Assembly (NCBI GenBank): GCA_963663165.1
Contig: OY760175.1
Coordinates: 3,424,001 to 3,488,000, forward strand
DNA length: 64,000 nt
Direction: 5' to 3'
Origin: an uncultured Desulfospira sp.
Lineage (GTDB): Bacteria > Desulfobacterota > Desulfobacteria > Desulfobacterales > Desulfobacteraceae
Position 1 is the first letter of the stretch, and each line of letters starts with the position of its first letter. The notes under the pieces were generated by a model, which saw nothing but the letters and a program-made list of their open reading frames with translations, did not search any database and was not told the origin of the DNA. This document shows positions 1,709 to 59,888 of the stretch, in pieces. The translations under genes and the position numbers were made by a program.

Positions 1709-1797
1709 TGTGAAAGTCTCACTAACAAACTGAAAAGACCTTCGTTTTTGGTTATGGACCGATGCTTGGCTGGATAACCAAAGGTGGTCCATGACCG
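1709..1797 (-). mobile_element. Repeat family B copy 1 (two-hairpin, TAA-flanked mini-element)
   Basis: Reverse complement reads TAA-CGGTCATGGACC...TTGGTTATCCAGCCAAG...GTTAGTGAGACTTTCACA-TAA and aligns with the copies at 21130, 21218, 36093 and 59798. Confidence 0.8.
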
Positions 1798-20590: not shown

Positions 20591-21430
20591 TCAACCCAGA
20601 TAATCACTTGGCGAATTCCCAAAATACTTTTTAAATTCCCTGGAGAACGTTCTTTACTGGGCATACCCCACTTCAAAAGCCACTTGTGTCACACTTTTGT
20701 TCCCGGTCTGCAGCAGCCGCCTGGACTCTTCCAGTCTGAACTTGCGAAGGAAATTAAATATAATAGTGTCACCATAAACCTTAGAAAAGCCCTGGCTTAA
20801 CGTGGTTCTGTTTACCCCCACCATTCTGGAAAGTTCTGTAAGGGGGGGGCCTTAATATCGGAAATGATTATATCGCGGGCTTTGTGAACGAAATTCCCGG
20901 AGTCGGATGCAAGGTCAAAGCAGAAGCCGGTCTGGTCCTTATCTGCATTGAATTGATCAAAACCGGAAATCATCAGTTCCAGCGCTTTGCTTCCTAAAAA
21001 CAGGCGTCTGCGGACATCACTATACGTACATCCGAGGATTTCATGAAGACGAATATTAATGGACGGGGTCATGGACACGGGGCAGCAAAAAAATCCTTCT
21101 TTTTTTGAGGGAGCCAATATTTCTTCTAACGGCCACGGGCCGTCTTGGTTATCCAACCAAGAACCGCCCACAACAAATATTGAAAGAACTCAAAAGGTTG
21201 CTGAGTCTTTCATATAACGGCCACGGGCCGCCTTGGTTATCCAACCAAGCACCGCCCACAACGAAAAATGAAAGTCTTTTCAGCTTGTTAGTGAGACTTT
21301 CATATAAAAACTTTTGGTCAAATTCTCCGGCTATCCCTTCGGAAAACCGAATTACGGGGTTTAAGTATATTCTTGTCAGACCCGGATATTTTATGGCATT
21401 TTGAATAATTTGAAACCGAACGGAATGACC
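20591..21430 (-). pseudogene. AraC-family regulator pseudogene (5'-truncated, interrupted by two family-B elements, frameshifted, internal stop)
   Basis: Reconstructed reading: ...EGIAGEFDQKF|LEEILAP...SKALEL...APP[frameshift in G8 at 20842-20849]LTELSRMVGVNRTTL...SVTQVAFEVGYAQ*RTFSREFKKYFGNSP. Confidence 0.85.
21130..21304 (+). mobile_element. Repeat family B copies 2 and 3 in direct tandem (21130-21214 and 21218-21304)
   Basis: Arrangement TAA-[unit]-TAA-[unit]-TAA; removing it restores the AraC frame. Confidence 0.88.
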
Positions 21431-33499: not shown

Positions 33500-34189
33500 A
33501 TAGTTTTCTATTCCCTTCCGGGAGGTCAACCCCCATGGTATTGTAATAATGGCGGATTTCCTTCATCTCTGTAATCAAATCGGCAGCGTCCATCAATTTT
33601 GCAGAACCTCTCCGGCCGGTAAGGTAGCAAGTTAAAATAAGCTGTACAAATTGCGCCGAATTTTTCTTTGTTTTCAAGGCGGACAAAGGCGCGCATAACG
33701 AGCTATGTGTGCCTTTGTCCAACGAAGAAAACATCAGAAAAAGGCAAGTAAGGTGTATAAGTTATTTTAACTTGCTGCCTAAGTATCAATCGTTGTTGAT
33801 TTGGGCTTGTCCTGTATCAGGGCCAGGATTTCTTCTTCTGAAATCAGGCCAGACCATACCGCCACAATTATTTCATCCATGATCGCGATATCATGGGCAT
33901 TTTTTTTAAAAACCGTTTTCATCCGGTCTATCTCTTTTTGGGCCAGCGCCCGGTGAAACCCTGCATCCTGATCCTTTTTGGTAAAGTCCTCACTGCCGAA
34001 CTGCTCAATTTCAACTCCAGGCAGGTATTTAATGGCCGTCAACTCACCATAGTGCTGTCCTTTCATAAACTGCCCGATAAATACCTAAGGTCCTCTGCCA
34101 CAGGCCCTGACAGCCAACCCAAGGGCAGCGGGGGTTGTTTTTCCTTTTCCGCCTCCGGTGTAGATATGAATGTCTCCCTTTTCCAGCAT
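33500..34189 (-). pseudogene. cobO: Cob(I)yrinic acid a,c-diamide adenosyltransferase (CobO/BtuR family) pseudogene
   Basis: MLEKGDIHIYTGGGKGKTTPAALGLA.RA.G.G* VFIGQFMKG ... MDEI ... LILTGR ... ADLITEMKEIRHYY ... RKGIE, with an in-frame TAG, frameshifts and a MITE insertion. Confidence 0.88.
33623..33779. mobile_element. 157-bp MITE (element D) with ~26-bp imperfect TIRs and a TAA target-site duplication
   Basis: TAA-GGTAGCAAGTTAAAATAAGCTGTACA...TGTATAAGTTATTTTAACTTGCTGCC-TAA. The empty site restores the codons for LILTGR. Confidence 0.88.
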
Positions 34190-34246: not shown

Positions 34247-35380
<1,134 letters not shown>

Positions 35381-35383
<3 letters not shown>

Positions 35384-35533
35384 TGCCTGAACGGAAACCC
35401 CCGTGTTTGAACGAAAAGTTGCGCAGATGCAAGGTGTAAAAAAATTTGAAACCGGCGCAACCATGGGGTTGTAAGGATTTCATTTTTTTTCTTGCAACGC
35501 AGCAGATGGATGACTTTTCGTTCAAACAGCATA
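35381..35533 (+). mobile_element. Repeat family A copy 2; its TAG is the leuB stop codon
   Basis: TAGTGCCTGAAC...GTTTGAACGAAAAG...GATGCAAGG...CAACGCAGCAGATGG...CTTTTCGTTCAAAC. Confidence 0.8.
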
Positions 35534-36092: not shown

Positions 36093-36179
36093 CTGCCACG
36101 GGCCGTCTTGGTTATCCAACCAAGAACCGCCCACAACAAATAATGAAAGTCTTCTCAAGATGTTAGTGAGCCTTTCATA
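36093..36179 (+). mobile_element. Repeat family B copy 4, in the rho leader
   Basis: TAA-CTGCCACGGGCCGTCTTGGTTATCCAACCAAG...GTTAGTGAGCCTTTCATA-TAA. Confidence 0.85.
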
Positions 36180-59797: not shown

Positions 59798-59888
59798 TAT
59801 GAAAGCCATCATGAATGAGCTTAAAAGACTTTCATTTTTCGTTGAGGACCGAATGCTTGACTGGATAGCCAAAAACGGTCCATGACCG
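59798..59888 (-). mobile_element. Repeat family B copy 5
   Basis: Reverse complement reads TAA-CGGTCATGGACCG...TTGGCTATCCAGTCAAG...ATGAAAGTC...GGCTTTCATA-TGA. Confidence 0.78.

Follow-up and report, generated by a model that had tools for sequence, protein, structure and literature searches.

We analysed a window of 64,000 nucleotides from the genome of an uncultured Desulfospira sp., a single contig of 6.74 Mb (G000; G001 is a genome of the same genus, and other G and L codes denote relatives and IS loci). The window contains the remnant of an AraC-family gene on the minus strand (20591..21346, limits approximate), which carries a frameshift and one in-frame stop, has lost its 5' part and is interrupted by a tandem of two short elements on the plus strand, referred to below as minis. 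Unit 1 (21130..21214, +, 85 bp) consists of a left-end module and sub-terminal inverted repeats enclosing a 16-bp interior. Unit 2 (21218..21304, +, 87 bp) has the commonest exact sequence, with 6 identical copies in G000. The tandem follows a left target (TCT) with an AA core-like dinucleotide (21125..21129, +), the register of which is taken from the guide/target comparison below. The two units are separated by a TAA junction (21215..21217, +; see the junction counts below), and the right end T is followed by a run of five A (21305..21310, +), which exceeds the length that the ortholog requires. Within unit 2, hairpin 1 (21225..21257, +) is an enlarged form of a short hairpin in the left end of the parent element described below, and an alternative 5-bp hairpin at 21218-21230 (+) covaries too. 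The left sub-terminal inverted repeat (21269..21277, +) starts 7 bp after an internal CACAA motif and the right one (21294..21302, +) stops ~3 bp from the end. Three further minis lie at 1709..1797 (-), at 36093..36179 (+), where the copy follows AAT-AA, and at 59798..59888 (-), where it has diverged. A preliminary description of the window had listed these five copies with TAA on both sides and TGA at one end, and the sequence bears this out.

All four insertion sites in the window are empty at the orthologous positions of G001, and the insertions at 1709..1797 and 59798..59888 each amount to the unit plus 4 nt. The AraC-family ortholog of G001 is intact (335 aa, PF12833 and PF00165), with nothing at the tandem site. 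Contigs of the X1 and X5 runs, which are of DNA or of unrecorded type, skip the tandem, unit 1 included, with the same letters as G001 and are also empty at 36093..36179, but both runs come from one study and are probably close to G001, so that they lend no independent support. The preliminary description took the in-frame rejoining of QKFLEE across the tandem as evidence of insertion. The insertion itself stands, as the empty site in G001 shows; the register does not, since the proposed rejoin is one codon too long (QKFLEEIL versus QKIDKIL in the ortholog, a surplus of three bases). The remnant has lost its 5' ~144 codons, with the break ~40 bp beyond the tandem, and given the frameshift, the stop and this loss, the tandem may not have been its first lesion. 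Just past the tandem, at 21346-21371, the window lacks ~19 kb that G001 has (238816-257960) and that includes the 5' part of the AraC gene. Elsewhere in the window, stretches of 153 and 210 bp (35376-35530 and 33584-33795) are skipped in the X1/X5 contigs, and the first resembles another multi-copy repeat.

A profile of the five copies gave 305 matches in the 6.74-Mb genome. Of these, 205 are full length and spread throughout G000 on both strands; 170 are distinct, and no more than 6 are identical. The TAA bias of the flanks seen in the window holds genome-wide, with TAA on the left in 160 of the 205 full-length copies (AAA in 33) and on the right in 188. A structural regular expression for the mini found 0 matches in 2 Mb of shuffled genome. 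Boundary rules delimited 231 units in 183 arrays in G000 (139 single, 40 double and 4 triple), and three forms were distinguished, of 85-91 bp, of ~107 bp (left end longer by 19 bases) and of ~140 bp (a different interior). The exchange of GGGC/GCCC for GGAC/GTCC reported for hairpin 1 is real (77 G-C and 15 A-T among 104 distinct 87-mers), while the claim that wobbles pair on one strand only failed, with 19 G-T versus 43 A-C cells in hairpin 1 and 23 versus 12 in hairpin 2. The label 'TIR-less' is right for the termini and wrong further in, since hairpin 2 is formed by sub-terminal inverted repeats that the parent also has. Parent and minis both keep the stem of hairpin 1, with flipped sequence, and there is covariation also in a second pairing at the extreme 5' end. 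Thus, the structure of hairpin 1 seems to matter; it may be read by protein, loop out during RNA pairing, or merely insulate against read-through.

Between 1.6 Mb of G001 and G000, compared in both directions, 50 flank pairs were placed: 27 were empty and 23 filled or otherwise different, with filled pairs counted from both genomes and some lying in a stretch 100% identical between them. The preliminary description had reasoned that a lack of empty sites in close relatives would count against insertion, and these 27 of 50 came out on the other side. Its expectation of a single TAA at such sites held in part: the sites are empty but often read TAT, TAC or TGA instead. The 19 well-anchored empty/filled pairs comprised 11 insertions of unit+4 nt, 2 of +3, 3 of +5 and 2 of +6, besides one misaligned pair. 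An insertion of unit+4 is compatible with an A or AA core, of which the empty site holds one copy, without true target duplication. In the simplest parse, a target NNT-AA and an end junction TATA-AA-C would cross over inside a core of AA (at least A). Of the 27 empty sites, only 3 fall in ORFs of at least 150 aa; thus, gene disruption by minis is the exception. Four element sites with 100% identical flanks were found in G000:C1 ~3350000-3371000 and G001:C1 ~140000-161000, in genomes otherwise 85-98% alike, and this identical stretch is likely a recent DNA exchange.

Outside the window, G000 carries an IS110-family element of 1,744 bp with a 419-aa recombinase at 4.37 Mb and 4.13 Mb. Further copies at 4.96 Mb (right end interrupted) and 4.91 Mb (a fragment) bring the total to three near-full copies and one fragment. 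The recombinase, whose gene looks intact, matches NF033542 (IS110 RNA-guided transposase) above cut-off as well as PF01548 and PF02371, and has the DEDD RuvC-like domain. The left end of this parent element reads AAC, three variable bases, CAY, hairpin, CACAAC, six bases, TGAAA, and the right end TTTCA TATAA. The minis have the identical motif order, which identifies hairpin 2 as the sub-terminal inverted repeats of the parent minus gene and RNA. The earlier suggestion of a non-autonomous element mobilised in trans by an enzyme encoded outside the window, with IS110 among the options, is probably right. Around a second IS110 protein of G000 (4922045), neither visual inspection nor the left-end pattern revealed such ends, and no autonomous element with the exact long left hairpin of the minis was found. 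Homologues of the parent are present at E <= 1e-60 in 19 of 120 family genomes and in a few more beyond. In those of at least 54% identity, the left-end motifs are retained in every copy whose flank is available, apart from rare single-base deviations, and many IS110 homologues sit directly on the right end of a mini, inside mini arrays, or with a mini following them. A search of plasmids returned, among its best 20 matches, unnamed IS110 proteins only ~40% identical. Two of the parent copies are interrupted by other insertions of ~1.9 and ~3.7 kb (G000:C1 4961842-4963721 and 4913807-4917539). At the left end of L076 (G000:C1 ~4366500-4366530), a sigma70-like -35/-10 pair with 17-bp spacing was noted by eye just inside the left inverted repeat; if true, it would make a junction promoter unnecessary.

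Downstream of the recombinase gene lies a conserved block of ~130 nt, whose predicted fold is well supported, with double changes in 11 of 19 pairs among 16 sequences. By analogy with IS110 elements in the literature (PMC11208160, PMC11187229), we infer that this block is transcribed and guides the recombinase. The block contains a motif ending in AAC. In 51 of the 55 autonomous copies for which guide and left flank were both available, the three bases ahead of this AAC are identical to the three that precede AA at the left flank. Base by base, guide and flank agree at 159 of 165 positions over 9 guide variants (class permutation p = 2e-5, although copies and their kin are not independent, so that p-values overstate). 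The guides read TAT in 30 copies, AAT in 8, ACT in 7 (two variants), ATA in 5, AGT in 2, and TAG, ACC and AAG in 1 each. The four misses are three mismatches of a single base and a TAT guide beside an ATA flank. A further, tenth case also agrees: the ACT guide of G115 matches an ACT flank already seen for L073. A second RNA motif, on the donor side, has the sequence of the right end plus core and, in L069, varies in step with the right end. Left-target and left-donor matches were found in the RNA block, and no right-target or canonical right-donor guide was assignable. The block also carries CATG and CACAAC in the order and sense of the left end, both nearly invariant.

Targeting appears one-sided. 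The left flank of the TAT class is conserved to about -8, partly since many copies land on right ends of minis, while 32 copies gave no right-hand target consensus and no information beyond the third base from the core start. One-sided target logos often signal wrongly set ends, according to the available text of PMC11187229. Here, the empty sites fix the element ends, at least for the minis, despite the one-sided logo.

The landing sites of the minis fall into classes that match guides. Among 130 G000 units without a preceding unit, the left flank was TAT in 42, ACT in 42 and AAT in 24, which is 12- to 146-fold over background, with TCT, TTT and ATT near background. The resident guide in G000 is TAT only. 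Neither G000 nor 1.6 Mb of G001 yielded an RNA-block remnant with ACT or AAT as its guide; both guides occur in relatives. Mismatch tolerance is an unlikely cause of the ACT sites, since ACT is two mismatches from the resident TAT guide, and we infer ACT- and AAT-guided donors for these minis of G000. Furthermore, ACT landing sites number 0 of 44 in the G001 sample, which suggests that an ACT-guided element entered the G000 lineage after the split and was then lost. With their hundreds of copies, the minis are likely a record of the differently programmed transposase versions that have passed through the lineage.

Since TAT, the commonest guide, also matches the right end of the element itself, each copy is a target, which would explain the tandems. 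This leads to a prediction on junction length: insertion at a right end under a TAT guide should give a TAA junction, and under a guide shifted by one base a TAAA junction. Indeed, G005, which has the one-base-shifted guide, showed 28 TAAA versus 3 TAA junctions in 400 kb, a contiguous block that includes loci already seen earlier. TAA and TAAA junctions numbered 57:18 in G000 and 20:9 in 1.6 Mb of G001 (together 77:27). The mean far-end A-run was 3.9 in 138 singles versus 4.9 in 33 TAA-junction arrays, which fits one extra A per TAA junction; the mean of 6.1 in 11 TAAA-only arrays is unaccounted for by this model. In the AraC remnant, the right end of unit 1 fits the resident TAT guide and was likely the landing site of unit 2.

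We put the probability at roughly 0.9 that the minis are gene-less elements which have both ends in common with an IS110-family element and are likely moved in trans by its recombinase with a predicted bridge-type RNA. The recombinase would excise minis and insert them in trans, either by direct transfer or through a ~90-nt circle in which the two ends meet across the AA (minimally A) core. The RNA is predicted to read just ~3-5 bases left of the core. Each copy would become a landing site through the match of the TAT guide to its right end, so that tandems would grow, and transposases with AAT and ACT guides, since lost from G000, would have placed the other two copy classes.

Three other explanations were weighed. 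The preliminary description had pointed to strand-specific hairpins read by HUH/Y1 enzymes, and a REP/PATE-like element that an HUH enzyme of the Y1 (IS200/IS605, RAYT) or Y2 (IS91) type mobilises in single-stranded form would share the two hairpins, the lack of terminal repeats and the fixed orientation at a short AT-rich target; G000 encodes 14 Y1 and 8 Y2 matches. However, a unit lies within 3.5 kb of only 3 of 13 Y1 and 1 of 6 Y2 loci, about the expectation from density, and none of these loci is bracketed by mini ends. The wobbles show no strand preference and the ends belong to the IS110 element, and we hold movement by an HUH enzyme to be highly improbable. An IS91-type origin, raised by a resemblance of the right end to oriIS, and a link to Y1/RAYT were both rejected: no Y2 and no Y1 locus carries mini ends. 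The mini might also consist of two modules, with hairpin 1 a separate target repeat and the IS1111-like mobile unit confined to the stretch between a point 7 bp ahead of the left repeat and the right end. The internal CACAA is at exactly this 7-bp distance, as in the IS1111 spacing described in PMC11187229, the CACAAC motif recurs in the RNA block, ~7 copies end near the CACAA point, and a few matches lack hairpin 1. Yet hairpin 1 was left alone at 0 of the 27 empty sites, autonomous copies have an identical hairpin at unrelated sites, and the guide covaries with bases to the left of it. A two-module composition is unlikely to be right, while the mini may have an occasional second, inner left end.

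The minis could, on the other hand, be structured RNA or DNA repeats maintained by the host and spread by duplication or conversion, in which IS110 elements merely land. Three observations would fit: IS110 copies are often on the right end of a mini, minis persist in genomes without IS110, and minis between co-oriented genes show a mild sense-strand bias genome-wide, lying on the strand of the genes in 69 of 109 cases (p = 0.007, with crude ORF calls). Host repeats would not account for precise presence or absence at unrelated sites, for ends that are common to the IS beyond the landing motif, or for a junction length that tracks the resident guide. Rfam had no family at gathering level for the RNA block in three IS loci and gave only two sub-threshold matches at the tandem. 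We give this explanation scarcely any credence.

The minis and their parent were then compared with known systems, as described in the available parts of the cited sources. The closest precedent for transfer by an IS110 recombinase is MITEPpu9 (the ssr9 module) of ISPpu9, an IS110-family element of Pseudomonas putida KT2440 (PMC12288879). Like the minis, MITEPpu9 is a gene-less module with the ends of its parent, a dinucleotide core and a short inverted repeat in the left end (A box), and it occurs beside the parent, alone and in tandem; circles have been shown for MITEPpu9 (PMC12288879). It has 8 copies and a REP target conserved on both sides (PMC12288879), whereas the minis reach ~200-360 copies per genome in many genomes. 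Furthermore, the minis or their parent have features not seen in that source's available description of MITEPpu9, namely sub-terminal inverted repeats, an RNA block downstream of the gene, a short left-sided target, and several interiors and guide classes.

With the IS1111 group (ISEc11 etc.), the parent shares sub-terminal inverted repeats, a right extension of ~3 bp, a long non-coding region downstream of the gene and natural guide reprogramming (PMC11187229, PMC11208160). Artificial mini-IS were moved in trans in that group (PMC11187229, PMC11208160), and the minis act like these constructs of the seekRNA assays. In contrast, the repeats here, at 8-9 bp, are shorter than the usual 11-13 bp though within the 7-17 bp of PMC11208160, the left repeat lies 30-70 bp inside the end and behind a hairpin rather than 7 bp inside it (PMC11187229), and a right-target match, as found in the IS1111 group, was not found here. 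The 419-aa recombinase compares with 330-350 aa in IS1111 and 395-455 aa in the subgroup that includes IS110 (PMC11187229). Because its left extension and protein length depart from the IS1111 group, while other features agree, the parent is placed in the IS110 family and not assigned to that group.

DEDD and Tnp domains, core-centred scarless insertion and a guide in target sense are shared with IS621 and ISCro4, whose similarity to the recombinase is distant and limited to the C-terminal domain (E 3.5e-9 and 1.7e-7). In IS621, the RNA is encoded upstream and both target halves are read. Tandem non-coding units with left-donor matches (n = 468) have been described at IS110 loci in bioRxiv 10.64898/2026.08.14.744561, the available text of which contains neither 'MITE' nor 'non-autonomous', and one-sided guide matches can drive recombination (half-match; 10.64898/2026.08.31.748434). 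As far as these two sources were available, they treat tandem units and half-matches as local expansion or off-target activity, whereas here the units are dispersed, have two ends and move as wholes, and targeting is apparently one-sided as a rule. The minis are MITEs in the wide sense, with no gene, both ends of an autonomous element, many copies and empty orthologous sites. They differ from classical MITEs in that the repeats are sub-terminal and the insertion is unit+4 with a shared core. QMITE2 of Coxiella is a target of IS1111 and not a derivative of it, according to the available text of PMC5896051. No description of the mini family was found in the literature, including the available parts of 10.64898/2026.10.21.760802, 10.1101/2025.10.25.684509 and 10.64898/2026.03.19.712850, while preprint supplements or databases may hold the RNA.

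The mini pattern was present in 71 of 121 family genomes, with up to 362 matches each and 0 control matches. Among the matches listed, the minis of some relatives start with the parent's own short left end. By hand count, at least 10 minis occur in 12 of 19 relatives with a homologue of the parent and in 26 of 101 without a close homologue. PF02371 found no match in the mini-rich genomes G001, G013 and G090, so that a vanished parent must be assumed for mini-rich genomes without IS110.

A broader interpretation, which we regard as possible though doubtful, is that these elements form a distinct lineage of bridge recombinases. Their RNA would read one target half (3-5 bases plus core), hold a copy of each of the four conserved motifs (left target plus core, CATG, CACAAC and right end) in the order and sense of the DNA, and pair with one DNA strand only, while the three variable bases and hairpin 1 loop out. 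With donor ends common to all guide variants, one pool of minis would be served by many transient, differently programmed transposases and keep a dated record of guide switches. The one-strand reading is speculative and builds on the order of CATG and CACAAC in the RNA block. To our knowledge, MITEPpu9 is the one known case of a natural non-autonomous passenger of an RNA-guided recombinase; the mini family would show that such passengers can reach hundreds of copies and span a whole bacterial family. The minis offer a ready-made minimal donor of ~90 bp along with a natural series of guide variants and matching targets, and thousands of natural insertions from which specificity and mismatch tolerance could be read. 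This bears on how much guide pairing IS110 enzymes need, in view of half-match recombination. Minis also contribute to gene disruption and to intergenic change in these bacteria.

Several minor observations were made along the way. Reverse-oriented minis are nested within minis at an internal ACT-AA site (G000:C1 2956356, 4169498, 3693406 and 1732783), and others lie at GACT-AA inside another repeat family, apparently with terminal inverted repeats (G000:C1 3651135, 3600321 and 3683466). The TATAA target is similar to a -10 promoter box. An IS91-type Y2 transposase gene follows a 247-aa ORF, integrase-like by eye, at G000:C1 5540210-5542159. An integron attC site was considered for the TAA-C junction and rejected, as the inner boxes do not pair by eye. 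A riboswitch reading of the long mini variant was likewise dropped, because the downstream genes have no common theme and the 19 extra bases are found in other contexts. Finally, the long left-end variant of the mini contains a motif of ~19 bp that includes a small hairpin. The motif recurs in a second repeat family (five copies, e.g. 3645558 +) and, in two copies, inside a broken IS91-type transposase gene or at its start (G000:C1 902650 and 903009, -). This motif, which may be a tiny mobile unit or a footprint, has 49 matches in G000 and 51 in 1.6 Mb of G001, compared with 1 in 3 Mb of shuffled sequence.
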